A DNA stretch of 64,000 nucleotides from assembly GCA_964016885.1 (NCBI GenBank), contig OZ024743.1:116622001-116686000 (forward strand). The letters are read 5' to 3'. The stretch comes from Eledone cirrhosa (lineage: Eukaryota). Below the pieces are notes generated by a model. The model had not been told where the DNA came from. It was given only the letters and a program-made list of their open reading frames with translations, and did not search any database. The translations under genes and the position numbers were made by a program. This document shows, in pieces, positions 1 through 64,000 of this stretch (the stretch's first letter is position 1; every line of letters starts with the position of its first letter).

Positions 1-1931
1 AAGATATATGCCACCGTGGACGTGCTTTTTGCCACACATCAGGAGGCAAAGGCTCAATCCTTAGTGACACTAAGGAGCGTGGAAATGGTGTTGGTGCCCT
101 CCTACTGCGGATCGCTGCCATGCACAGCGACATCTGCTCTGTGGTGAGAGTGAACGGTCACCTTTCGGAACCGTTCAACATCATGCGCTCGGCCCGCCAA
201 GGATGTCCCCTCTCGTCCCTCTTGTACGTATTGACTCTCGAGCCATTACTGCACAAACTGGAGACGTTGAGGGGCGTCCCGAGCGAACTAGGATGCGGAA
301 GATCCGTGTCAGCATATGCGGACGATGTCCCCGTAATGGTGTCGAACGCCACACACATCGAGGCGATCGGCACTACACTAAGAGAATACGAAGCGGTGAC
401 AGGAGCAATGATCAACGAGGAAAAATCAGTGGGCTTGCAGCTCGGCACCTGTAGAGGCAGGTCCATGCCGTCCAACAGTGTCGTCGGACGCTGGATGGAC
501 GGACCTGTTAAATTGCTAGGAGTCTGGTTCGGTCCGGACCTCCAGACGGACAAAAACTGGGACGAGGTGACGAGCAGGGTGGCTTCTCTCACCCAGAAAT
601 GGGCGGAGAGTAAGCTATCCCTGAAAGGTCGCGCGGAGGTGGCTAACGCATGCATCGCGTCTGTCATCTGCTACCGCCTGACCGTCGTACCTTGTCCTAA
701 GCCCCGCCTGACTGCGCTGGAGCGTTTGCTCTTTCGCTTTTTGTGGAAGGGACGCGCTCCGATGGTCAGGCGGTCCATTTGCTGTCAACACTCGCTACGT
801 GGACGGCTGGGAATGCCGTGGCTGATGATGCGCAGACACGCGCTCAGGCTACGACATCTCCACCTCTTCCTCGACGGTGATCAGGTGTGGTCGCCGTTTG
901 CTAGACACGTATTTCCCCAGCTCGTTTCCTTGACGGAGCTGTAGTCCTGGGTCAAGCGAAGACCGAGAGGGAGCGCTTGGAGACTGGAATGTCTTCAGGC
1001 GCTCACAGCCCTCGACCAATCGGCGCAATGTGATCGGTGGAAACTCCACCTCGGCGTTCTATAGAGGATTCGTGGAGGGGAAGAACGACGACGTACTTGG
1101 GGAAACTCTAGGCGTCGACGAAAATCAACTAGCCAATCTCTTCGGAAGGACTTTCGGGCCGGGGCCTATGGACAACTTCCAGAAATCCCTGGCCTGGCAG
1201 TGCTATCGAGGAGCCTTGCCAGATCGGGATAAACTCTACAGGCATGGAGGTGCCGTCAGCCGGGCATGTCCGAGATGCGCGCAGGGCGAAGAAACCGTCC
1301 TGCACGCACTCGTCCAGTGTCCGAGCATTGCTGACTTGTGGGTTTATGTCGAACGCCTGCTGTCGCGTGTAGGACGGATCCGGCTATCATCTGAGTCCAT
1401 CGTGAGGATTGCCCCGCCCTCTTCCATTAGCCGGGAAGGGCAGGCAGTTTTTATCTGTCTGGTGGCTATGGCGAAAGAGATAGTATGGTGGACACGTTGG
1501 AAAGGCTGAAGACGAGCACTTACCTCTTCGGTGATGCCCTGGTTGACTTTTGCAAATTTCATTGGAAAAGAAAAATCAGAGTAGAGAGGGAAGTGCTCTC
1601 TTCCCAGCATTTTGTTGAAAGATGGGTGAGAGAAGCAAGAATGGCCCGAGTGAATGAGCCTACTCTGAGTATGTGTCTGTAAATTAAAGGTGGAAATCTC
1701 GGAGAGGGCACTTGCCTTGGTGGTCAGGGTCACTGTGGTCTTTTAATGGGCTTTCTCCACAAATGTCCCTCCGAAGTCTCCCCCCTATTGGGGAATTTTT
1801 CATTGTTATTTTTTTGTTGCATCCTCTGTTTTTGTTTTTTACCCGAAGAAATGCCCATTTGTACCGTCCTGTATTGTCCTCCACTGTCCTTAATGTCTAC
1901 TTTATGTAAACCCTTGTGGTTAATAAATAAA

Positions 1932-3055: not shown

Positions 3056-4478
3056 CCTTGAATCTCAGTCATTGATGTTGGTTAACTGTAAAGTCCGTTG
3101 GAATGAATATCAAGCCACTACCTGCAGCCTCAGATATTCAGGACGTATCGGAGGGTTCTTGCTGTTCCCAGCAAGCATGCCTTTTGAAGCGTTCCAAAAA
3201 GCGTGAAGGGGCCGATTTTCTTTAACCATCCCTGGAAACTTTTGGTTTAACCATCCCTGGAAACTTTTGGAGATAGTCCCCAGTGCGCCTATGACAATCG
3301 GGATCACTTTGACTTCATGGCAGTTCCAAATCCTTTTCACCTCCCACTTTAGGTCCTGGTATTGGTTAATTTTCTCCCTCTCCTTCTCTTGCACTCTCGT
3401 GTCGAACGGGCAGGCCACATCCACAATCAGACACGATCTTTTTTCTTTGTCCACAACCACCAGGTCAGGTCTATTGCGTTCCAGTTTTTTGTCCGTCTGT
3501 ATCCTAAAATCCCACAGCACCTTCACCTGATTGTCCTCCATCACCGCCTCTGGCCTTTGCTCATACCATTTCTCAGAATGTGGTAAATTGTTTACTTTGC
3601 ACAGCTGCCAGTGGATCACCCTGCCCATCACATCGTGTCTCCAGCCCTTATAGTGGCTCTGGGCTAGGTGTTTACACTCGGACACAATGTGAGCCACAGT
3701 CTCCTCTCTCTCTCCACAGATCCTGCACAGTGGGCTAGCCTCCTCCTTGTAAATATGGTGCTTCAACCACTTCGTTTTGAGGGCCTGCTCCTGCGCAGCC
3801 ATTAGCATTCCTTCTGTAGCCTTTTTGAGGTCTCCTCTTCTCAACCAGTTCCATGTCTGTGGATCTCTAAATTCAGTTTTCTCAAAGAAGGTACTATGAA
3901 GGGATTTTCCCTTAAGGCTGCTCTTCCTCCTTTATGTTATTTCCTCCTTGGACATCCCCTGGCCTACTGTCCCCTCCTTCAGTACAGTTCTGAGCATTGG
4001 CTCCTTACTATAGGTCACGTATTTGTATAGGTTGTTTTTCTCCATCTGAACACAGTCCTCTATGCTGATAAGACCTCTTCCACCCTCAGATCTCCTTAGG
4101 TAGAGTCTATCGACATCACTCCTCTTGTGGAACATGTTGTAGATAGTCAATAGCTTCCTAGTCTTCCTATCCATTTCTTTTTGTTCAGCAACATTCCATC
4201 TCAGAATTCCCGCACTGTACCTAATAATAGACACAGCTCGGGAATTTACTGCGCTTATGGCATTTCTGCTGTTCAGATGTGACTTCAATAGGCTCCTAAC
4301 TCTCCGAATGTATTCAGTTCTTAACAATTCCTTCATTTTTTTGTTCTTTATGCCATCAGCCTCCAGAACGCCCAAATACTTGTATCCTTCCTCAGAGTCA
4401 ATTTCCTTTATCATCTCACCTGTTGGTATCTGGATCCCGTTACTTCTGCTCAACCTACCCCTCCTCATCACAATGGGG
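3056..4478 (-). mobile_element. R4/Dong-like retrotransposon, 5'-truncated (RT C-terminus, CCHC knuckle, RLE)
   Basis: YKYLGVLE, RLYLRRSEGGRGL, AAQEQAL, CRIC..EETVAHIVSEC, RHD, NRPDLVVVD, IVDVACPFD, IPIVIGALG in ORFs 3932-4726 and 3110-3844; (TAA)n at both ends. Confidence 0.92.
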
Positions 4479-12562: not shown

Positions 12563-12621
<59 letters not shown>

Positions 12622-13044
12622 AGGTATGGACATAGAATAATGAATGCAAATGCAAAAGATATTGTTGACAATTAGTCTTTTACCTTAGATTTATTTAAAT
12701 GTCCTTAATTTTCGAGATAATATCTCTTCTTCGGAGGGAAGTAAAGCGGTTAAACCAGTGTTCTAAATAGCTTGCCAAGTCATGCTGACAGTAAATGGTA
12801 TAGAGTATCTGTTTATGTTTAATGTCAAAGAGTTAGGTTAGGTGGATAACGAGTAGTCTCCCTTTAAAAGGTTTTTTTTTGTACATGCCTGTTTAAGTGT
12901 GTGGTAGAATGCATGAAGGTGTAAGTATGTGAGTGTGTGTGTGTGAGTGTGAGAAGATATGTCTATACGTAAATGTGGGGGATACATGTTATCTCGTGTT
13001 AGAACTGGTCGTTGTGTGTGTGAGAAAGAATAAGTGGAGGTGTA

Positions 13045-13081
<37 letters not shown>

Positions 13082-13150
13082 CGTGTGTGTGTGAGTGTGT
13101 GTGTGCGTGTGTGTGATGTGGCTGGGTGTAAATATGAGGCAGAAGCTCTA

Positions 13151-13630
13151 TCAAGTTATGAATTGGGTGTTGAGTTCTAGTCTATTATTGATTGGTGGTT
13201 GTGTTTTGTCTATAATTAGTGCTTCCTTAATTCTAAGATTGCCGAGGTTTCTTTCCTTAGTTTCTATCCTAACTGTTATAGTTGTGTCGGTGTTTTTGCA
13301 TTTAACTAGGTGTTTCTTAAATGAGGAAGCGTTAGTATTGAGGTGTTCTTTTATTCTTATGTGGAGTGGTCTGGTGGGGCTACCTACGTAGAAGTTGCTG
13401 CATTTGTCACACTCTAGTCTGTATACGACGTAAGCCTGGTGGCATAGGTCTGTGTTGTTGATGGGGCAGTTGGCTAGCCTGCAGCAGTTGTCATGTCTGG
13501 TGGAGTGTCTTTTGCTTAGCAGTCCGCGTAGAGAAGGACCTGAGTGGGCCAGTTGGATATCCAGTCCCTCTCGTCTGATAGCTCTGCGGATGGCTGTTGT
13601 TGTTTCGTCACTGAAGTGTGGGAGCTTCAA
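13151..13630 (-). pseudogene. Inverted duplicate of the PLE GIY-YIG endonuclease domain
   Basis: C.LANCP....LC, VVYRLECDKCSNFYVGS.TRPLHIRIKEH, RIKEALII....PPINNRLE. Confidence 0.88.
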
Positions 13631-13668
13631 GAAGCAAGTATTAGTGCCTCGATTGTGGTGTCCTCTGT

Positions 13669-16075
13669 CCTACCAACATGCTTCAGATCACCAGGCCTCA
13701 AACGATCACTTAGTTACATACAAAAATTCTGCCTAAGAAATCACATACAACACCTACACTGCACGCTACAACAACACATACGAACTATTTCCAGCCTTGT
13801 ACCACAACTCGCCGAAACACCAGAACCTCTGTCCAGAGTTATCTCCGCGGCTATAGACAGGTCATACCACCATCGCCGAGACTACGAGAAAATACGCCTA
13901 ACGCAAACATTTCTCAAACTCAGCACGTCTAACCGTCTTAATGACATCCTAAATCTAAGCACTAACAGAAGCGAACAAGACGGTCCCAACACCGAATCTA
14001 GCGGCGCCCCGACCAACAACACACCTGACGCAAAACACCTCGTCACAGACTTGACAGGATCCCTCTCCCGAGAGGAATTATACCTCCTCAGCCTGGGTCC
14101 CAAGTTCATATTGAAACAGAGACTGGACGACAAAATATGGCTCGACATAGAAATGAATTTCTGTCGGGTTGTCTACCAACTAAGATGGATATCGACTCTC
14201 GGCAACAACCCCACAGAATCTAACAAACCCAGATTCCCGATATACCAACTGGATCACCCACTCTGTCCACCGCCTGCCAACCGCGAGCTTGAAGAAAAAC
14301 TCTCGAGGCTAAAACATTCCGTATTTAACATCTTACGGAAACAGAAGAAGATAGCCCCAAACCTCTCCAGGACACAACAACTCGTCCTGAAGAACCTACG
14401 GATTAGGGAACTTATATACTTACCATCCGACAAAGGCAAAGAGTTTTGCGTCATATCTCAAGCCACATACAACAACCTAGCCTTTGAACACCTAAGCGAC
14501 AATGAATTATATACAGAGATCCCGGACATGACTGCAGCCCATATCGAAAAACAGACCAACTCCATCTGGTTCGATATCTGTAGGAGAAGACAACTCCCAA
14601 ATAACGTTAAGCTCAACTACACCACTAGAAATAGCAGACTGCCCAATTTCTACCACCTCATCAAGACCCACAAGAATAGTAATAAGACGCAAATAAGACC
14701 CATTGACTCTAGCATAGAAGGACCCCTATACAAAATTTCCTGGCTCCTCTCCCAGGTCCTCAAGCCTCTACTCTCCACCTTTCCCGGGCATGTCAGTAGC
14801 TCCGACGAAGTTATACGTAGACTAAACCAACTCCAGCCAGAACAACTTAAACTAAATAGATACGCCTTTAGCCTCGACGTTGTCTCCCTCTACACTACAG
14901 TCCCCGCTCATCCAGCTGTCATTTATTTACGGACTGCGTTGTCGCAGAGGACATCCGCTGCTACGACCTCCATCCGACGGACATACACCAGCTTTTGTCC
15001 TTCACAGTAGACAACACATACTTCACCTTCCCCCACCACACATACAGACAGACACCAGGATTACCCATGGGATCCAGCCTATCGGGCCTGCTGGCCATCA
15101 CCTATATGAGCCAGCTAGAATGCCGTGCCCTCAACACCTGCCATTCCCATACCTTCTTCACCCGATATGTAGATGACATACTCATCCTCACATCATCCCT
15201 TGAGGAGGCAGATAAACTATACACAACATTCTCCAGCATGGACGCCAGTATAAAGTTCAGCATAGAATACCCCGATGACCGCGGATCCTTATCCCTACTG
15301 GACTTCCAACTCAGGGTAACAGAGGAAGGCAACATCCACACCTTCTTCTATAAAAAAGCCGCCAGCAGGGACATGTTCGTACGTTTCAGATCGACCCTCC
15401 CAGCCGGCGCTAAGTTCGGATACATAAGGAACAAACTGACACGTATCCGGAACAAATGCACCGACGTTAGAGACCGAGACACACACACCACACATTTCCT
15501 GGAAGTACTCAAAGTGAAAGGATACCCGCACATCCACCACAAACCGTGCCAGAAAGAACAGAGGACACCACACCCGAGGCACTAACACTTGCTTCCTGAA
15601 GCTCCCACACTTCAGTGACGAAACAACAACAGCCATCCGCAGATCTATCAGACGAGAGGGACTAGATATCCAACTGGCCCACTCAGGTGCTTCTCTACGC
15701 GGACAGCTAGCCAAAAGACACTCCACCAGATATGACAACTGCTGCTGGCTAGCCAACTGCCCCATCAACGTAACAGACCTATGCCACCAGGCTTACGTTG
15801 TATACAGACTAGAGTGTGACAAATGCAGCAACTTCTACGTAGGTAGCACCACCAGACCATTCCACATAAGAATAAAAGAACACCTCAATACGAACGCTTC
15901 CTCATTTAAGAAACACCTAGTTAAATGCAAAAACACTGACACAACCATAACAGTTAGGATAGAAACTAAGGAAAGAAACCTCGGCAATCTTAGAATTAAG
16001 GAAGCACTAAATATAGACAAAACGCGAACCACCAATCAATAATAGACTAGAACTCAACACCCAATTCATAACTTG
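13669..16075 (+). pseudogene. PLE RT plus GIY-YIG polyprotein, 5'-truncated, at least two frameshifts
   Basis: LSLGPKF, PSDKG, FYHLIKTHK, IRPI, SLDVVSLYTTVP, YRQ..GLPMGSSLS, RYVDD, LLD, GYP; endonuclease at ~15790-16075. Confidence 0.9.
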
Positions 16076-16184
16076 ATAGAGCTTCTAGCCCTATATTTAC
16101 ACACACACCGCACACAAACACACACACACACACACACCACACCACACACACACACACACACGCGCGCGCGCACACACACGCACG

Positions 16185-16221
<37 letters not shown>

Positions 16222-16533
16222 ACACCTCCACTTATTCTCTCTGTCACACACACAAAGACCAGTTCTAACACGAGATAACATGTATCCCCCACATTTACTT
16301 ATAGGTATATATTCTCACACTCACACGCACACACTCACATACTTACACCTTCATGCACTCTCTCACACACTTAAACAGGCATGTACAAAAACAAAACCAT
16401 TTTAAAGGGAGACTACTCTTTATCCACCTAAACTTAACTCTTTGACATTAGAGATAGAACAGATAATCTATACCATTTCCTGTCAGCATGACTTGGCAAG
16501 CTATTTAGAACTCTGGTTTAACCGCTTTACTTC

Positions 16534-16568
16534 CCTCTGAAGAAGAGATATAATCTCAAATATTAAGG
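16534..16568 (+). ncRNA. Degenerate hammerhead in the PLE pseudo-LTR (mirror copy ~12703-12737, minus)
   Basis: cct-CTGAAGA-aGAGAT-ata-ATCTC-(g)AAA-tattaagg; the mirror copy retains GAAA but has CCGAAGA. Confidence 0.6.
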
Positions 16569-16729
16569 ACATTTAAATAAATCTAAGGTAAAAGACTAAT
16601 TGTCAACAATATCTTTTGCATTTGCATTCTTTATATTATGTCCATACCTGCATTGTTTTGGCTTTATTATACATATACAAACGTTTATACCTCATTACAC
16701 AATGCTTCAAGTGAACTATAACCTCCTCC

Positions 16730-17047: not shown

Positions 17048-17081
<34 letters not shown>

Positions 17082-17085
<4 letters not shown>

Positions 17086-17277
17086 GCTTTCACCATATGT
17101 TTGACTAAAGGTATTTTAGCCTGACAGTGGGGTTTAGAACCCTCGGATAAATGGAAAAAGATGAGTATTGACGTACATGCCATGAACGTCAATACTCATT
17201 TTTTTCATTTATCTGAGGGTTTTAAACCCCATTATCAGGCGAAAATACCTTTAGTCTAAAATATGGTGAAAGCTATT
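17082..17277. repeat. ~196 bp fold-back palindrome inside a (TA)n-flanked insertion (17081-17327)
   Basis: aatagctttcaccatat...gagtattgacgt / acgtcaatactc...atatggtgaaagctatt. Confidence 0.92.
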
Positions 17278-17324
17278 CTATTTTCTAATTTCAAAGCTGC
17301 TCATGGTTTCAAAACTTACTTACT

Positions 17325-17370: not shown

Positions 17371-17873
17371 ATACTTTGGCAATGTCATGTTGCCAATAAC
17401 AAACACACGCACCCATAGCTTTCACTCCAATTTATTATAAATTAAATTTATAAATTTAAGAATTTATAAATTTCCGGCTGGCTGGTTGGTTCCAGAACCG
17501 GACGGTTGTTCATATATTGTCAAAGTTCTTTCGTCACACATTCTGTGACCTCTTCAGTGACACATACAGACACTCGGATGTAACACATGCGCAAATTAAG
17601 GACACAACACACACAAAAACAAGATAGCATAGGACAGAACAAAGGAGAGGCACAAAACAAAGAAAAGAATCCCCAGTCAATGAAGAGGTCACAGAATGTG
17701 TGAGGAAAGAACTTTGACAATATATGAACAACCGTCCGGTTCTGGAACCAACCAACCAAGCGAAAATTTATAAATTCTTAAATTTATAAATTTAATTCAT
17801 AATAAATTGGAGTGAAACAACTGGTGCCTGTGTTTCTTATTGGCAACATGACCCTCCCAAAGTATAACAATAT
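17363..17873. mobile_element. Non-coding inverted-repeat element, ~200 bp arms, hammerhead in each arm
   Basis: Arms 17363-17561 and 17676-17873. Confidence 0.9.
17519..17561 (-). ncRNA. Type I hammerhead motif (mutated mirror at 17676-17718, plus)
   Basis: GTCA-CTGAAGA-gGTCAC-agaatgt-GTGAC-GAAA-GaaC-TT-TGAC. Confidence 0.78.
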
Positions 17874-20254: not shown

Positions 20255-20310
<56 letters not shown>

Positions 20311-20348
20311 CGAGCTGAGGATCCGCTAAGGTAAAGCAATTGTTCTCG
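20311..20348 (+). ncRNA. Degenerate hammerhead in a ~70 bp microsatellite-embedded fragment
   Basis: CGAG-CTGAGGA-tCC-gctaa-GGt-AAAG-CAATTG-TT-CTCG; GAAA box altered. Confidence 0.6.
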
Positions 20349-20573
20349 GTATGGTGAACTAACTGTTGTGAAACCATTTCTCTCTCTCTCACTCTCTCTC
20401 TATATATATATATATTTATATATTCTGAGTATATGTACGTTGTTTACCGACACCTTAGTGTGCAGAATGGAGCACTCGACGAAGTACGCAGGTTGGTTTG
20501 GTTACTCCGGAGTAATTTAAAATAAAGTAATTAAGTCAAATGTTTAAAATTTGGCTTCATTTATTAAAGATGT

Positions 20574-20628
20574 ACTGCTATATATATTTCGGTGACAGCC
20601 ATCATTGGCTGTGACCTCTTCAGGCAGT
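20574..20628 (-). ncRNA. Type I hammerhead motif, intact core
   Basis: ACTGC-CTGAAGA-GGTcACAGCCA-atga-TGGCTGTcACC-GAAA-TATATA-TA-GCAGT. Confidence 0.9.
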
Positions 20629-22012
20629 CCGAATTGGTGTGGGAGAGACAGGTACACATGTTGTTAAAGTGTTTTACTCCGTCAATACTCCGATATGTCC
20701 AGCACCTGGTTGGGTTGTTATTTCTCTGAGGAACTCGAATCATATGAATTCGAACAAACGAATTTCGGCATCATAGGACACTCTCTCCTCCCATTGGTCA
20801 GTTGTGAGAACATTCCTCAGTCAAAAGTCTATAGAATTTTTTTTCTGAGGCAAGACAATCTGTTGTGGTTGTTTTTGTTAAGTACAGCTGACCTCCTCCC
20901 TTGTGTTTATTGTCGTTAGGGGGTTAGCTGGCAGGTCAACCTTAGATCTACTACTGCTGTCTTTAGAATAATGAGTGTATGTAGGTTGGCATCAATCGTA
21001 CCAACCTTTCACGTGGTGGGGGGTGCCAAACAGATAATGAAATAAGATAAAGTAAAATGAAGAAATAAAATATTAAAAAAATAAAATAAAATAAAAAAAT
21101 AATAAAATAATAAAATAAGATACAATAAAATGAAGACATAAAATATAAATAAATAAATAAAATAGAATAAAATGCGTGTTTGTTATAGCCAATATCATTT
21201 ATCAAAGAAGAATTAAGTTCATGTGTGTTATAGCCAATATTAAAGTTTGAAAGTTTTGGAAAATATTGACTGAAGTATAAAGGCTGTGTCAGAACCGGGA
21301 AATGCAAAGGATTACGATCTTTACACTATCATGGGGTGGTGCGTTTTAAGAGCAAATGAGGCAAGTGGGGAATGTAAAACACCATAACCTGAGTGTCAAA
21401 ATCCGGAAATGCAGAGGACCACAGTTTTTAATTCGGCATAGAGTACATATGCGTGTATGTCAACCCACATCGTTGCAAGCCCACACGCACAAAGATGGGC
21501 CCAGGTGCATCCCATAATCACACACACCCACACACACACAGACAATACAAACACACACACACACACACATATATGTATATATATACACGCGCACACACAC
21601 GCAGGCACACACACACTGTTTGGCACCCCCATAGGGTGGTAGGATTGATGCCAACCCACATACACTCATTATTCTAAAGACAGCAGCAGAGGAACTAAGG
21701 CTGACCTGCCAGCTGAACCCTTAACGAAAATAAACACAAGGGAGGAGGTCAGCTGTACTTAACAAAAACAACCACAACAGATTGTCTTGCCTCAGGAAAA
21801 GAAATTCTATAGACTTTTGACTGAGGAATGTTCTCACAACTGACCAATGGGAGGAGAGAGTGTCTTATGATGCCGAAATTCGTTTGTTCGAATTCATATG
21901 ATTCGAGTTCCTCAGAGAAATAACAACCCAACCATGAGCTGGACATATCGGAGTATTGACGGAGTAAAACACTTTAACAACATGTGTACCTGTCTCTACC
22001 ACACTAATTCAG

Positions 22013-22067
22013 ACTGCCTGAAGAGGTCACAGCTACTGATGACTGTCACCGAAATATATATAGCAGT
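22013..22067 (+). ncRNA. Type I hammerhead motif, intact core (mirror copy)
   Basis: ACTGC-CTGAAGA-GGTcACAG...CTGTcACC-GAAA-TATATA-TA-GCAGT. Confidence 0.9.
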
Positions 22068-22191
22068 ACATCTTTAATAAATGAAGCCAAATTTTAAATA
22101 TTTGACTTAATTACTTTATTTTATATATTTATTTTATATATTTATTTTATATATATATAGAGAGAAATTGCTTCTACAAGATTACTAGAAT

Positions 22192-32403: not shown

Positions 32404-35400
32404 CTATTGGAGGGCTGCCTTGTAAACCACATTTTTTGTCAATCTTCCGGGAGCGTAGTAAAAGAGATTGGCCGAGTTTCCAACTCTTGAACATCCCACA
32501 TACAGTTATCCGTGTGAAAAGCATGGAGTACTGAGGTCCAGCCCAACCACTTTTAGTGACTGCCCTTGGGCTTTGTTAATGGTCATTGCAAAACTTAATC
32601 GAATGGGGAATTGGACTCTTTACATCGGAAAGACACAGTCAGTTGGAATAGGTGGAACTCTGGAAATAAAAACAGAGTCACCAGCGCCTTTTCCCGTAAT
32701 GATTGTAGCCTCAAGAACATCATCCAACATATGCGTTATAACTAAGCGTGTTCCATTGCAAAGCCGAGGAGGTTACAAGTTTCTCAAGAATATGATGGGA
32801 CTTCCAAGTCTTAGGCAGAGTTTATGACGTGGCATTCCCGATGGCTCTAGTGAGTTTAAAAACTATGTTGGATAAAACGTTACTTGCGTCGGATCCGTAA
32901 TCGAATCAATCGAAGCATAACATCGCTCGTTGAAAGGAAGTTGACGAAGCAGACATGTGTTAAGAGCTTGTAGGAGCTAAGATGGCCCTCACACATCCAT
33001 TGATGACTGACGTAATTTGTTGAGAGGTCGGGGTAAACTCTTGTGCAAATGTCCTCAGGGCTGGAGACGTAGTTACCGATGGTAGTTATGTCAACCAAAC
33101 CGTTTACGTCGATTGGTAAGTTCCCATTACCAACATCCAATAACTTTGAAGCAAAGTAATTGTCACCGTCTTGTTGGTGGAGAATCGATCGCATGTTGAT
33201 GGTTAACTTTCTCGACTGGACGAAGCGCCAAAGATGAGAATGTTTAATGCAAGCATCTATTTCATCAACTGGTTGGACTTTTGGGACAATGGGAAGAGTT
33301 TGACGAAAATCCCCAACGAGAAGCAGAACGACGCCACCGAAGGGTTGAGAGTTGTAGCGCAGGTCTTGTAGCGTTGTATTCATTGCATCCAGTGCATTCT
33401 TGTGGGACATTGTTGCTTAGTCCCAGACAATCAATTTGCATTTTTGAAAGACATCAGCCTCATCAGAATTCTTCTTTATATTGGTGGTCAGATTTTCAAC
33501 ATGACCGATGTTAAGGGGAAGCTTAAATGTTGAATGGACTGTTCTGCCGCCGTCTAGCAGTGTTGCTGCTTCCTGAAGACGCCATTGCCATGACAATCTG
33601 TCCACGTTGGCGAACTTTGGCAATAAGGCGGTTGAAGAGAAATGTCTTTCCCGTGCCACCTGGCGCATCAAGGAAGTGGATGCCACCGCTAGTGTATTCA
33701 AGCATGGTCAAAACAAAAGTATAGACATCAGCTTGTTCAAGATTCAAAAGATTTTCTCTTTCTTGAATGTAAGACAGACGTCTGGCAGCATTGTAGCATG
33801 TCTCTCTTAGTAGGGGGCGGTTACAAACAGGCTCATTTTATCTTTTAGGGGAGTCCATACAGTAGTTCCTCAAGGGACGGCCACCCATTTCCAAAAGTGT
33901 AAGTATATCTTCTAGAAATATTGTACATGTCAGGGGTAAACTGTAAGTTCATGTGTGCGGACGCGAAGCGAGATTGCATTAGGATGTCCAAGCACATGCT
34001 GTCGCGATATTTCTCCTAGAAAGACTGTGGATTCCCAAGACTGCAGTACACCAGCATAACGGCGAAAAGCTTACGAAGAGCAATTGGTGACTGCAACGTT
34101 GATGCTTCATGGAGGGCGTGGTCATAGTGGTCACCATTGTCTAGAAGACCTAATTTGGAGCAGGCCTCTTTAAATGTTGAACAAATATGACCATTGACGG
34201 TACGACGGTCTTCAAAGTAAGTTGGACCTTTGACAACGTGTAATAGAAGACGAATTGAGGGGTGAACTGTGTACACTCTTGAGAGGGCATGAGACTCACG
34301 CATCGAAACATCCCTTTGTGAAATTCGTCCTCGCTTTCTTCTTTGAAGATTTATTCCACGTGTAGAATGTAGAAACTCCGCATAAAGAAGTGTTCTGGCA
34401 AGAGAGTCAGAAATACAAAGTTCAAAGAATCCGGCAAGGGTCGTTCTTCGAGGTTGTCTTGCACAGTCAAGCATATTTTCTTGGTTAAAATACACCCGTT
34501 GACCATTCCCCAAATGAACGTTGAGGTGAATAACTGCAGGTTCATGGATCGGAAAACCAAAGATGCGCCAAAATGCCTCGTTAGAAGAGATGTAGCGTCC
34601 AGTTTGGAAAAATGAGACTTCATCTGTGGCGGCATCAGGGTTATTGGTCTTAGCCAACTCAATAACTGCTCGATCAGCTCCCTTATGGACATACTTGCAG
34701 ATATATTGCATTGATTTTATGGAGTTGCAGAATTCAACATTAATGTGGGCTGAAAACATTTTACAAAGCACCTTGTTATGTGGTACAACGCATCGGTTGT
34801 CGATATTGAAATCTTGACCACCAACCATTGTTATAGTTGCCGTATTTCCATCATCCTGCGGTGCCCTGCGACGGTATAAAGGGTAGCCATCATCACCAGT
34901 TTTGGTTTCATGGATAAGTTTACGTGGGTAACGCTTACTACATTTTCCATTATCCATACATGCAGATTTTGGATTTAGGTGACCACACGGTCCATGGATC
35001 ATGCTGGCTTTTATAATTTGAAAAAGACAGGGTCTTCTTGGGGATTTGGTAATTCAGCAATTATAACGGAATCAATATCAGTTGACATGAGGTTTTTTTA
35101 AGCCAAAGGAGAATATGGACATGTGGGAGTCCTCTCTTCTGCCATTCTACGGTGTACATGAAACACCTTACTGGTCCAAAAATTTGTCTGTATTTTATAA
35201 CGTCCATCATTTTCATAAGCTTTAGGTGAAACACTCTAGATATGATATCATGCCTGTGTGAAGGATATTGGCCATGAAGTAAGTGAGACTGGATGTCAAA
35301 CCATTTTGGATTGCATGTGAAGGTGATAAAAAGATCAGGACGGCCACAATGGCGGACATAGGTGAGAGCATCCTACATTTTTTCATGCATGTAACGGGGG

Positions 35401-41128: not shown

Positions 41129-41926
41129 CTTAGGTATTTATATATGTATACATATACTTATATAAATACCTACGTATATACATATATATATACATATAAT
41201 TCGGGCATACAATGTTCTATGTTGAGAACGGATATAGACAACAACGTTCCATGGATTCTTAACTCTTGTAGAGTCGTACGGACACCATAATTGCATATGG
41301 CGTGTCCTTGGCATTTAACCCTGGTGAAGCCCATGATATGTCTTTTGGAATACAATCGGTTTCTTCTAGAAAATATCGACATAGAAAGAGAAAAAAAGTA
41401 TAATATTGATATGGAGGAAGAATCAACCCCAGTATTGAACTAGTGCAATATTTAAACACCGCCAAAACAATGAATAGCAAAGTTGATCTAGTGAGGATTT
41501 GAACTCCATATTAGGAGAACTGGAGCAAATATCGCAAAACATTCTCCGACCGACTCTGCTACTTCGCTGTTTTATAACAATCTTAACATGTATAAACCCG
41601 TAGCACGTGGTTGACTTCATAGGGGGTCCTCGGTTATAGAACAGCTTTTCTTGTGCATTTTCAACCTAGGAGCCATTCTACCTCGGTTTGCCAGTGTTAA
41701 ACAAACGGATGACGAGTTGTCATCGACACTGTAGAGCTTTAATCCGGTCATTTTTTTTTACGAACGAATCAAATGTTATTGTTAATGTTTGATATATCCC
41801 ATACGTACATATGTATATGCATATATGTGTGCGTCTATATTTATATATGTATGTGTGTTTATACATATATATATATATATGTGTGTCTGTACGTATGCAT
41901 ACTTACACACACACACACAAACACAT

Positions 41927-41993
<67 letters not shown>

Positions 41994-42169
41994 GAGAATG
42001 ATTAGGTATCGAGATGGAGAAGAGAATGGAAAGATAGTCGATACATATATTTAGTTGCCAATAGTTTATGCATATGTGCTCAATACTCGTGCCTACAGGG
42101 TTAAATATTAGAGGGATCAATATTTAGTGGGCGATAAAAAATAAGCAGAGCGATTATAAAGGAAATGAA

Positions 42170-44575
42170 TACAAAGTGTTTAAAACCGTTAAAACATGTT
42201 TATATAATTGTGCCCCTACGTACGTTTCGCCCTGAGCGGATTTATCAATGGCATGGAAAGCAAAATAATGTTCAATATAGGACCCAGGAGGGAATTTACG
42301 GTTAAATTAACATCATCATTCATTTTCCTCTCTGTGCATGTGTTTTTATTATCACAGAGCAGGGTGAGTAACTCTGGCCGGTGTTCAAGCAATCAGTCCC
42401 ATGTGGATTTTAAAGCCTGTTCATATGCTGGTGTTTAGCATCTTTATGTTATGTGTGTTGTTTCACTGGTACAAGTAGAGGTCGTGTCTGGTGTGTCCAT
42501 TTATTATTTAGTGGATGTTGCTTCACTAATGTTTGTTCGAGTATGGTCTGCGGTTTACATTTGGTTCACAGATGTTTGTTCATATTGCGTGCCCACCGGG
42601 GTGTTATGGTTCGGGCAGGAGGACCCAGTTCGTAGTTTTCATGTCACAGTCGCCTCCCAGGCAAAATACGACGCCTGTACCCGGTGTTTACAATTAATAA
42701 CTGATTCTGCTCTGCTGTTTAAGAGCTCATGGGGTGTTCTTATGATGTAGTACAGCTCCATGGGGTAGAGCTGGCATTTCCCACTGAAGTTGTAGGGTGC
42801 AGCCATTCTGACAATATCCCGGTGTGTGGAGAAGCTTATGTTGGCGTCTTGCAATGTGGTGACTTAGTAGGCAAACGATGTGGAGTGCCTTAATTTTTTG
42901 TTCCTGAAAGAGAGGAGATGCGTCTTAAATCTCGTTTTAAACTGGCCAGAGGTGGCTCCTATATAGTGTTTAACTCCGCTATGGCTAGTTACGGTGTACC
43001 TATAAACAACCTTATCAGTCAGGCAGTTTCCCCTGAGAAGGCAGCCTTCCCTGTCACAACAGTTGCATTTTCCGTCACGGTCGCTCCCAGTTCCTAAATT
43101 AAAGTTATTACTACTGCTATCTATGTTGTTATCTATGTCTCTAACTCCGTCAATGGTACTGTTATCTCTCGATGCGTGCGGTGTTGTACGATTATTATTC
43201 TTCACGCCTTAGCCCGTTCTGCTGCCGGTGGATGACGCGTGTGGGTCGCCGGTATATTCTCCAATCACACCCTAGTTACGTGGGTTTCGTCTGCCGGGGC
43301 GCCATCCACCCTATTTGGTGCTGTTAGGGGGATGTTAAAGTTATTAGTGTTGTTGTCATGGCTAGATGTATCTGTACTAAGGTGTAGTGTTTTGTTAATC
43401 TTACTGTGATTAGTTGCTCCAATGATGTCAGCTAGATTGGAGGTGGAAGAGAAGGATATTTTGATATTGTTCCTGTTATGTATTTTTCTGTATTTATGAT
43501 TAGGTGGGAAATCCTCTCCAAGGCTTCGAAGAATATCCTCGGTACGTCGGACGCCACACTCCGAGAATAGGTGGGGGGCATATGATATTACGGTGGCGTT
43601 TCCGCTTTACAGTTGGTTTGCCACAGGTTGTGATTCCTATTTCACAATACTTACGGTTGTTCCTGTGCTGTAGCCGGTTATTCGTCCCCATTACTTTATG
43701 TTCAGGTGGGGGCGCATTACCTCTGTACTTTCTATGTGCGGCTGGACGCGGGTTGGAGGGTGTTGGTAATAGGCCGCCGCAGTTGCTGGTCTTATAGTTA
43801 GGTAATAACTCTAATAGGATGCAGCGGGTAGCGTTACCAATCGGGTAACACTTACCATACTGTCGATTGTCTTGGTCGCCACTCATGTGTGGTCAAGTTT
43901 CTTAGGGTGGTTAGATGCATAGTTTATATAGGACAGGATCTCACCGGGCTTATGGTATGGCTTGTATAGGCCGGTACTCAACTCCAGGGTTACATCTAGG
44001 AAATGGACTATTTGGTGCTTGAGGTCTTAAAGAAACTGTGTATGCGGTTGTTAAGGTTCTCTATCCTGCGGGGTCTGTGGCTTCGCACGGTAAACAGGGC
44101 ATCGTCCCTATATACCCCGCCCTGTAGGGCCGGTATCTCGTCCCTAATTCTATGGAGAAGGTATATCCCGACCAGGTTGGTTACTTGCGCTGAGTCGCTG
44201 GACTCCATCGTGATATCAAAGTTATCAGGACGGTTGGCTCTGGTCCAGTAGGAGCCATCAAACTTGATAATAGTTCTACGCGCTGCGAGCACAATATCTA
44301 TCGCTTTCCTAGTAAGGCTAGTATTGGACTTAGCTAGAATAAGCGCTTTAATTAGGAGTATGGGGGAGATCGATGCATAGTAGCCATCTATGTCAAACTG
44401 TATGAACTTAAGAGTTGTTTTATCAGGTAACTCCGTGAACCAATTAATGACCTGGTCGGTGCTGCTCCAGAGACAGACCTTGGCTTTATTATTAAGTTCT
44501 AGTAGTACTCTATCTAGGATCACTTTACTAATTTTACCTATATCCGAAGTAGATGGTCATATAAGTTTAATAGAG
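42170..44575 (-). mobile_element. Naiad-type PLE copy 1, 5'-truncated and disrupted
   Basis: FIQFDIDGYYASIS, FDITMESSDSAQ, GGVYRDDAL, CNC....C.L.GNCL..VVYR..V..HYIGATSGQFKTRF..H..SF. Confidence 0.88.
42211..42253 (-). ncRNA. Degenerate hammerhead in the Naiad 3' pLTR
   Basis: tgcca-TTGATAA-atccgctcagggc-GAAA-CGTACG-TA-ggggca. Confidence 0.62.
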
Positions 44576-44940
44576 GGGTTTTCATGACAGTTACATTTGT
44601 TATCCTTAAGAGAGAATCTAGGTGTCATAGGGACATATGGGTATATATATATGTATGCATATATATATATATATATATGCATACATACATAAGTATATGT
44701 GTATGCATCTTGTATTACATATATAGATACAAATTCATATATATAAGTATGTATAATTACATACATATATGTATAAAAACATACAGTAGTATGTATATAA
44801 ATACATACATGCACACATATATATATATGTACGTATGAGTTTACCGAACATTTATTATAATGTTCGGTTTGTTTGTAAACAGGTATCAGCCGTACTAAGA
44901 GTGAGAAATGAAATTTCATTTTTTCCAATTCATATAAATT

Positions 44941-45461
44941 TATTCATATAATATACATATCGACTGAAATATAATTATTTCAGTCATATTACACCTGAAA
45001 AGTAGCTCAATATAACAACAGGCTAACAAGTATGTTATGTAGATTTTGTTTATACAAATTATATTAAGGTGTAATTAGGTATAGTATATGAAACGTATCT
45101 ATTGCAAGCAAAATAACATTTTAAAAGAAAAAATATATTTTACCTGCAAACAATGGCTTCATTTCGCATAGAAGATAACTGATTAAGTTAATTAACCAAT
45201 AATTAAGACACTAGAATCATCAATAAGCATAATCTTATAATATACATTACAACTTTTACAAAAACATTTCAAGTGATATTACCCACTATCATTACAACAG
45301 TAAACCTTCCACAACAAAATGACGCGTTCATCTTATATAATATATATATATACATCGTGTTTTATACATATATATATACACGGACATGTATAAATACCTG
45401 TATATACATATATAATATGACTGAAATAATTATATTTTAGTCGATATGTATATTATATGAA
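44941..45461. repeat. ~50 bp inverted repeats ~420 bp apart, each arm itself palindromic
   Basis: 44941-44991 vs 45412-45461; gactgaaatataattatttcagtc. Confidence 0.8.
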
Positions 45462-45528
45462 TAAATATATATGAATTTGTATGTATATATGCACCACAAG
45501 ATGCATACACATATACATATGTATGTAT

Positions 45529-45581
<53 letters not shown>

Positions 45582-46450
45582 CACATATATACATATACAT
45601 ATGTACGTATGAGATATATCGAACATTAATAATAGCATTCGATTAATTTTCTCTGCAGTGCCGATGACAACTCGTCATCCGTTTGTTTAACACTGGCAAA
45701 CCGAGGTACAATGGGCTCCACTAGGTTCAAAATGCACAAGAAAAGCTGTTCTATAACCTAGGAGCCCCTACTAAGTCAACCACGTGCTACGGGTTTATAC
45801 ATGTTAAGATTGTTATAAAATAGCGAAGTAGCAGAGTCGTTCGGAGATTGTTTTGCGATATTTGCTCCAGTTCTCCTAATATGGAGTTCAAATCCTCACT
45901 AGATCAACTTTGCTATTCATTGTTTTGGCGGTGTTTAAATACTACACTAGTTCAATACTGGGGTTGATTCTTCCTCCATATCAATATTATACTTTTTTTC
46001 TCGTTCTATGTCGATATTTTCTAGAAGAAACCGATTGTATTCCAAAAGACATATCATGGGCTTCACCAGGGCTAAATGCCAAGGACACGCCATATGCAAT
46101 TATGGTCTCCGTACGACTCTACAAGAGTTAAGAATCAATGGAACGTTGTTGTCTATATCCGTTCTCAACATAGAACATTGTATGTCCGAATTATATTTGT
46201 TGAAGCGGTTGTTGTTTAAATCCAGATATCACTGCTCGGCCATTATTAAAACACCTCAAATTAATATGTTATCCACTTCAAAATTTATCACACCATATAA
46301 TTGAATATAATTAACTTTTCATAAAAACAGTTCCATACGGTTATTCGATTGATGGATCTATATTTAAATTTTAACAAACCTCATCAATTATTGTTAAGAA
46401 TGACAAACGACGAATTTGCTTTACACTTTTTTTTTTTAATATTTCATACA

Positions 46451-58718: not shown

Positions 58719-59033
58719 TAAAAATTCAGTGGGAATCGCATTTCGGCGGGCAGGAAAGGCGAAGCGAAACGCAAAAATCAGAAATGATACTGGCAAAGTG
58801 CTCAATAGTTTAAAACCAGAGCTAAACAATGTGTTAAGAAGACATACAAAACTGAAAATGTGGTCAACCAGGGATTAGCCACCCAAGCCCAAAACCAAAT
58901 CAAGCTAAACAGGTCAAAACAAAATAAATGATTAAAAAAATGAATGATAACCAGACCTGGACTCCCGGAATTGCTGTTTAAATCCGATGTAGATTGTTTC
59001 TGTGACACCTAAATCAAAATATATATATAAGTT

Positions 59034-59103
59034 GTTACACAGCAGTTAGTTCACCATACCGAGAACAATTGTTCTCGTTATGGTGAACTAACTGTTGTGT
59101 AAC
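59034..59103. repeat. 70 bp spacerless palindrome centred on CAATTG
   Basis: gttacacagcagttagttcaccataccgagaacaa|ttgttctcgttatggtgaactaactgttgtgtaac; right half matches 20337-20375. Confidence 0.95.
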
Positions 59104-59193
59104 CACTTTTGCCTAACTCGTCCCATGGACTGAGTGCTCTAGCACCACGGATATTACCTTCCAGTGTTCTACCACACTAAACATATATATGTA

Positions 59194-59327
<134 letters not shown>

Positions 59328-59351
59328 TACATAAAAGCCAAAGAGGGCTCG

Positions 59352-59511
<160 letters not shown>

Positions 59512-59602
59512 TACATAAAAGCCAAAGAGGGCTCGATAAGGATAAGTATATATCAAATATATAAAACCGTAGAGCAAATATTTATTAAAATAAGAGATTA
59601 AA

Positions 59603-62856: not shown

Positions 62857-62888
<32 letters not shown>

Positions 62889-62895
<7 letters not shown>

Positions 62896-63281
62896 TAAGA
62901 GGAATTCCAACTTTGTCTGATTTACTCGTTTTATTTACAATCCTTTAAAATATATATAATGGTATTATAATGAAATAGTATGATAGAATATTAAATTCTA
63001 AGTGTTAATTGAACAAGTACTTTCATGCTTTCGCAATATTCAGGTTCATGATATGTGGTGACAGTCGAGTTTGCAATTTTCAACAGTTGAAAATTGCAAA
63101 CTCGACTGTCACCACATATCATGAACCTGAAGATTGCGAAAGCATGAAAGTACTTGTTCAATTAACACTTAGAATTTAATATTCTATCATACTATTTCAT
63201 TATAATACCATTATATATATGTTAAAGGATTGTAAATAAAACGAGTAAATCAGACAAAGTTGGAATTCCTCTTATTAATAT
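62889..63281. mobile_element. 393 bp near-perfect palindrome (axis at 63085) with a hammerhead in each arm
   Basis: Arms are reverse complements with very few mismatches and a 1-nt loop. Confidence 0.95.
63122..63160 (+). ncRNA. Minimal type I hammerhead motif (mirror at 63010-63048 has CTGAATA)
   Basis: TGAAC-CTGAAGA-tTGC-gaaa-GCAt-GAAA-GTAC-TT-GTTCA. Confidence 0.82.
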
Positions 63282-64000
63282 AATCTTCTATACACAATCA
63301 TACACACCCGTGTATATTTACCTATCTATCTATATATATATATATATAGTAATAATGATAATAATAATAATAATATATATGGTGTTGTACTTTATTTCAT
63401 CGAGTATACATGCAGGTAAAGTAAAGTTGCATTTAGTGGTGTTTGAACTTAGAAGGAAAAGAACCAGAACAAATACTGCAATTCCTGTTTTAGTACGCTC
63501 TAAACGATCCTGCCAATTCATCGTGTACGTACATCAAAATTAATAGAATCTTTATATTAACATGATCAAACACCAGAAAATTGAACGCTTTATTATTGCA
63601 ATTATTTGTTTGATATAAGAAAATTAAAACTGAAAATTCCATGCATACAATAAACAGCTATAAATAAAACACAAGCGCAAAAAATCTAATTAATTTACCA
63701 AATTATTACCAATTGTTATTATGAGAACAAAGTATATAACTATATAGAATAACGCATTTATTTAGATAAAATTAATTTTCAATTATTTAAAATTATTTTC
63801 TCCCTACCTATACTTTCATCCAATGATGACGTTTATTAATGCGTAAATGTTATTGTAGTTTTCATTGTTTAACGACCACGCCAGATCTGGACCATGTATC
63901 ATCACAGGAATTCCAGCGATGAAGACTCTTTTATTTTATGGCTGTATCGCTATTGATTTTCCTTTCGTTTTGAAGATAATAGATTGTTGTAAGTAATTTC

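Follow-up and report, generated by a model that had tools for sequence, protein, structure and literature searches.

In this study, we propose that the palindrome at positions 59029-59108 of the window, a 64,000-nt stretch of Eledone cirrhosa DNA (contig OZ024743.1), originated from two cDNAs. Its sequence marks it as a very small inverted insertion, or stump, of a Hydra-clade Penelope-like retrotransposon (PLE). Reverse transcription was probably primed on both strands of its target, using the element's two start sites, after which the two cDNAs were end-joined. The axis lies on the stem III palindrome of a hammerhead-like motif, which is a real hot spot of fold-back junctions and scales with palindrome length, but is used in a minority of events and is a by-product, not the cause, of the inversion. 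A first-pass annotation had noticed this axis and had ascribed inverted pLTRs to nascent cDNA that snaps back on ribozyme-derived self-complementarity and primes itself; its observation is confirmed and its interpretation partly supported.

The inverted stump and its family

The palindrome has no spacer. Around the axis 59068|59069 (CAA|TTG) 37 of 40 positions are complementary, and the score of 31 compares with a maximum of 8 among 300 dinucleotide-block shuffles. The extent first given, 59034-59103, captured a real palindrome but missed 5 nt on each side, and it was overlooked that the arms are unequal: the left arm measures 40 nt, whereas the right arm extends 67 nt past the symmetry, to 59175. 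The insertion comprises the following elements:

59029..59068, minus strand: short arm, a copy of the 3' end of the element, truncated on its 5' side; it stops 35 nt beyond the hammerhead cleavage position, at the short (S) 3' end site
59064..59073, no strand: 10-nt palindrome AACAATTGTT (end of the GAAA box, stem III and UH of the hammerhead-like motif), with the junction and axis at 59068|59069
59069..59175, plus strand: long arm, of the same sequence as the short arm, stopping at the long (L) 3' end site
59109..59175, plus strand: 67-nt 'tail' present on one arm only, equal to the sequence between the S and L ends
59020..59029, no strand: short (TA)n target remnant beside the short arm
59183..59325, no strand: long (TA)n array beside the long arm, the target microsatellite
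20308..20379, plus strand: unfolded single-arm relative from the palindrome's family, beginning about 37 nt before the cleavage position, where it is joined to (TA)n

Both outer ends of the insertion (59029-59175) are thus adjoined by (TA)n, and the 5' half of the hammerhead is indeed missing from the palindrome locus. The predicted cleavage site lies 5 nt 3' of the axis within AACAATTGTT, so the template had not been cut at that point. Taken alone, a symmetric copy of this kind fits snap-back and the joining of two cDNAs alike and is no discriminator. In the unfolded relative, which has an S-type 3' end, the stem I 5' strand, CTGAGGA, stem II, CAATTG, TT and CTCGG are found as previously described, but the GAAA box is mutated and reads AAAG. 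A 35-nt unique stretch occurs as a direct repeat on either side of the TA array (59323-59358 and 59507-59540).

The family is abundant: a 21-mer that lies immediately 3' of the cleavage site has 7,576 exact copies in the 3.0-Gb genome. Its long copies are organized as tandem units of 2,577-2,584 bp (three loci). We assign it to the Hydra clade on motifs matching the hallmarks described in the available part of PMC8557442: a CxCX5C linker, CxxC and CxH near the C terminus, and no CCHH cysteines between GIY and YIG. The predicted family protein carries the same linker and the same C-terminal CxxC and CxH, and has no cysteines between VIY and YVG. Its frame of up to 722 aa contains YRDD (L255) and, near the C terminus, VIY..YVG, in line with the clade's single ORF for a reverse transcriptase (RT) with a C-terminal GIY-YIG-type endonuclease. 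The length below 3 kb, the insertion into (TA)n and the hammerhead motif point to the same clade; TA or TC repeats occur on at least one side in 131/133 fold-backs. In both family frames DKT stands instead of DKG, and the RWK motif appears as its conservative variant RWR. Atlas matches of the protein range from 0.95 to 0.97 and include GIY-YIG clusters, while Pfam profiles gave neither an RT nor a GIY-YIG match to it. A Neptune or Nematis PLE was rejected as a candidate, since these need a CX2-5CxxC linker together with CCHH.

Fold-back junctions and the hammerhead-like motif

In the family alignment, the motif consists of stem I, CUGAnGA, a 2-bp stem II, GAAA, CAATTG, UU and the 3' strand of stem I. 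This corresponds to a type I hammerhead core (CUGAnGA, GAAA and UH, with stem I and a palindromic stem III), and the GAAA box is intact in nearly all aligned element-derived copies. The conserved core and short palindromic helix III recall the minimal dimeric type I hammerheads of metazoan PLEs (Cervera and de la Pena, 2014; PMC4209133), in which, according to the accessible part of that paper, the short palindromic helix III serves dimer formation. Unlike those ribozymes, the motif described here, a putative ribozyme, lacks the canonical G10.1-C11.1 pair in stem II, which has only 2 bp with a U-U closure, and no hammerhead was among the matches listed in Rfam searches. At the RNA level, the stem III self-duplex is predicted at -8.2 kcal/mol, and the minimum free energy structure of the monomer is a different fold. 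The window holds further hammerhead-core motifs from several families, at 17557(-), 20623(-), 22018(+), 51150(-), 55301(+), 62413(-), 63127(+) and about 58410(+); in most of them the stem III loop is palindromic.

Fold-backs were defined by exact 12-mers on both arms and counted for spacers of 0-150 nt. Genome-wide, 1,222 were found, 112 of them with a spacer of 0-30, 846 with 31-90 and 264 with 91-150. Spacer 10 accounts for 55 fold-backs, and each of the 50 listed carries the stem III palindrome, either intact or with one base changed. The predicted enrichment of axes at stem III thus recurs, with 55 of the 112 short-spacer fold-backs against 1.3 events expected from independent joining (7/64 arm ends in the interval concerned), an excess of approximately 40-fold that is rough given the small sample. 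The wider proposal, that folding at stem III explains inverted pLTRs, is not supported, because the same 55 events represent 4.5% of all fold-backs, which is an upper figure given the spacers counted. In an unbiased sample, formed by the 100 exact matches that come first in genome order, the stem III axis was found in 1 of 41 inverted pairs.

The importance attributed to ribozyme structure is also not borne out. At spacer 46, 22 of 24 events fall in one GGA|TCC register, about 8-fold over expectation (12 clean, nine with 2-3 extra bases of one arm and one ambiguous). This palindrome lies 18 nt upstream of the stem III axis and is no hammerhead stem; its being hot as well implies that stem III does not explain inverted pLTRs in general. 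A junction at stem I was encountered only 10 times (23-nt pattern, of a stringency similar but not equal to that of the fold-back search). In a second family, 4/17 short fold-backs lie on its own 8-nt stem III palindrome, and a third family of the window has no short fold-backs and hence no axis to score. A GC-rich 10-nt control palindrome about 95 nt upstream had none of three fold-backs on its axis, a number too small to be interpreted. Stem III, presumably retained for dimerization of the ribozyme, is the longest self-complementary stretch near the cDNA ends, which would account for its role as a by-product hot spot.

The 5' ends of the arms lie 20-60 nt upstream of the cleavage position in 47/74 cases, and cluster around the hammerhead 5' edge equally for long, short and single arms; a block on the template or short transcripts may lie behind this. 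About a quarter of the arm ends in the short-spacer list are found at the cleavage site itself. A pile-up there is not claimed, since these ends coincide with microhomology. Between two inverted family arms at G000:C10:10942166-10942235, we observed a perfectly symmetric centre of unrelated sequence with a (TA)n core.

Long and short 3' ends and the origin of the two arms

The unequal arms of the window's palindrome follow a general rule. We parsed 134 fold-backs from mixed unbiased and bin-selected samples and removed one duplicate (about two more are possible). In 115 of the remaining 133, one arm stops at the long 3' end (L, about +100) and the other at the short one (S, +35 or +38); three are LL, three SS and 12 have an intermediate end. 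The tail between both sites measures 65-68 nt in the family. The same pairing occurs in 14/15 fold-backs at spacer 46, in 6/6 inverted pairs spanning 2-3 kb and in 10/15 of the second family (besides one LL and four with a truncated arm). Each end also exists by itself: among 33 unpartnered arms, approximately 10 end at S and 10 at L.

Apparently unequal arms are likewise present in five other inverted insertions of the window. Another PLE family at 12615-16656 (RT at 14872-15585, Pfam RVT_1; GIY-YIG at 15518-16042) has an inverted left arm at 12615-13671 and a right arm with about 70 nt of extra tail. Insertions of other families with a tail apparently on one arm lie at 20420-22126, 41194-46196, 62888-63330 and 17070-17300. 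At 62888-63282, a palindrome with 197-nt arms and a 1-nt centre is situated 42 nt upstream of its hammerhead core, and at 17420-17817 both arms have like ends. The window also contains fragments of LINE-like zf-RVT on opposite strands, 934-1509(+) and 3110-3931(-), and of a PIF1-like helicase, 32880-33416(-).

Which arm reaches further 5' bears directly on the mechanism, since self-priming cannot yield a short-tailed arm that extends beyond its long-tailed partner. Yet, once 18 unclean and 55 symmetric junctions are excluded, the short-tailed arm extends further 5' in 23 of the 42 asymmetric ones that parse cleanly. It also does so in 6/10 stem I junctions and in 3/4 of the second family, so simple snap-back, put forward as the rule by the first-pass annotation, fails as such. 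Median reach is nearly identical for both classes (33.5 for L, 32 for S; 46 pairs). Both arms of a copy belong to the same subfamily. They agree at one subfamily column in 104/107 copies and share 50 variants, compared to a permutation mean of 10.7 and maximum of 22, and at least five concordant subfamily classes are represented among the 33 stem III copies examined. As these shared variants differ between copies, each fold-back arose anew from a single template or source.

The junctions themselves carry marks of joining. Microhomology of at least 3 nt is present in 13/37 junctions without extra bases, against 4.8% expected. Extra bases, some of them copied from the tail, occur in 45/82 junctions and have no assignment, so that arm reaches are approximate. 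In three junctions (L019, L153, L254), inserts of 40-110 nt were copied from other parts of the element, in L019 and L153 from the tail, and these inserts resemble the templated insertions of alternative end joining. A search for target-site duplications gave non-adjacent repeats in 3/133; the targets are microsatellites, where duplications are unreadable.

Together, we favour a model of two primed cDNAs. The endonuclease would cut both (TA)n strands, whereupon one target end would prime at L and the other at S, probably on one and the same uncleaved RNA. Both cDNAs would halt near the hammerhead 5' edge, their 3' ends would anneal via microhomology and host end joining would seal the centre. 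Polymerase theta may have a role in this step. Those cDNAs that proceed past the stem III palindrome could pair there and give a seamless palindrome centre. Both the analogy to PAc in vitro and the occurrence of S and L as stand-alone 3' ends lead us to infer that the two sites serve for priming; the use of a single RNA for both cDNAs, and the sealing of the centre by the host, are inferred likewise.

The main alternative, which we consider unlikely, is snap-back: an L-primed cDNA folds back on a short stretch of self-complementarity, serves as its own template and joins the other target end, possibly followed by trimming of the centre. It draws on the real stem III hot spot, and it predicts the same-template arms and the coupling of arm lengths (rho 0.35, p 0.03), which is owed to the long pairs and drops to 0.09 among 33 short pairs. 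The skew it predicts is also found in part, which speaks against our model: the long-tailed arm is further 5' in 5/6 long-armed pairs (equal in 1/6; all six have partner arms of 264 nt or more) and in 19 of 29 asymmetric pairs of the unbiased sample, compared to 10 with the short-tailed arm ahead (37 L+S pairs, unclean parses included). However, copying cannot provide an arm with a tail absent from its template, and the short-tailed-ahead junctions are no rarer among the youngest copies (7/10 with at most one arm mismatch). It also leaves unexplained why a copy should stop exactly at a stand-alone 3' end site. Finally, the required hairpins are unstable: at stem III the folded cDNA is predicted at +0.4 to +1.0 kcal/mol versus -9.7 for a two-strand duplex, and loops up to about 1,500 nt with a 2-nt overlap would be needed (L246). 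In a post hoc account, the skews and the same-template arms also fit two RTs on one RNA, with the trailing RT displacing the leading cDNA. Deletion of the palindrome centre, during integration or later, could blur which of the two arms was originally the longer, and a mixed mechanism is possible.

We regard as improbable that an antisense RNA primes itself and that endonuclease trimming creates the tail. Self-priming was proposed from palindromes at inverted junctions (Arkhipova et al., 2013; PMC3846280), and the tail was attributed to endonuclease resolution (PMC8557442), as far as the available text of both papers goes. Any route through a single molecule would always make the same tail class the longer one, whereas either class can be longer in the copies, and in the data on PAc the tail is bounded by two RT start sites of the sense RNA (PMC11167929, accessible part). 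Amplification of one ancestral hairpin element as a fixed non-autonomous family might be suspected from at least 55 near-identical 150-bp copies, but this reading is very improbable and largely refuted by the at least five concordant arm classes, by short arms that stop at either 35 or 38 and by the scatter of junctions elsewhere. A fold-back artefact of assembly or library is hardly conceivable: the locus 59029-59175 was crossed by none of the Illumina reads and contigs examined, but its arms mismatch at 3/40 sites, its flanks are unlike, more than 1,200 copies obey one S/L rule, and the independent Illumina reads and contigs, possibly of a related organism, contain the family with scattered opposite-strand joints and with S and L ends that continue into (TA)n.

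Relation to known systems

The model of two primed cDNAs has its closest biochemical counterpart in PAc, a Poseidon element of Anolis (Frangieh, 2024; PMC11167929). In the available text, PAc nicks and extends both strands, uses two start sites that bound the tail, prefers uncleaved RNA, targets AT-rich DNA and is modelled as a dimer. It belongs to another clade, however, and in the text seen its two sites are not linked to inverted insertions. Its start site in vitro is alike on both strands, so strict S+L pairing has not yet been seen biochemically (PMC11167929, same part).

Among PLE insertions, those described by Arkhipova et al. (2013; PMC3846280) and Craig et al. (2021; PMC8557442) share with the present family the head-to-head inverted 5'-truncated copy, the junction palindromes, the tail on one end, the (TA)n targets and 2.58-kb tandem units, in the accessible parts of these papers. 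Inverted pLTRs, junction palindromes, the one-sided tail and the proposal of antisense-RNA self-priming are therefore already published there. The tail differs, with 65-68 nt here versus 30-40, as does the measurement of more than 1,200 copies, and our evidence favours two primed cDNAs over the self-priming or endonuclease resolution considered in those texts. A literature search, with subscription papers outside its scope, found no paper that reports, for PLEs, twin priming at two start sites or a junction hot spot at stem III. What is new here is a countable rule for how a known structure of a known element class likely forms.

In LINE-1 twin priming, reportedly introduced by Ostertag and Kazazian in 2001, the two cDNAs are said to span adjacent, non-overlapping parts of the RNA, with an opportunistic internal primer. 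In the family described here, by contrast, both cDNAs would span the same RNA part from two fixed start sites, which would result in a palindrome. Common to both systems are two priming events at one target and the joining of cDNAs by microhomology (reviewed in PMC10760644, available part).

Extending this to PLE integration as a whole is more tentative, and we give it slightly less than an even chance. Integration would then be a programmed form of twin priming: a dimeric protein would employ both fixed start sites of a single RNA, each for a different target strand, and cDNA ends would accumulate at the hammerhead 5' edge; inverted pLTRs with a one-sided tail would be the normal product of a single reaction. 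How inverted and tandem PLE insertions form has been called undefined (PMC8557442), and what follows first-strand priming unvalidated (PMC11167929), in the parts of these papers at hand. The idea of a ribozyme axis covers only a few percent of events. The S+L rule, together with the test of which arm is longer, provides countable predictions for any PLE-rich genome and for the PAc in vitro system.
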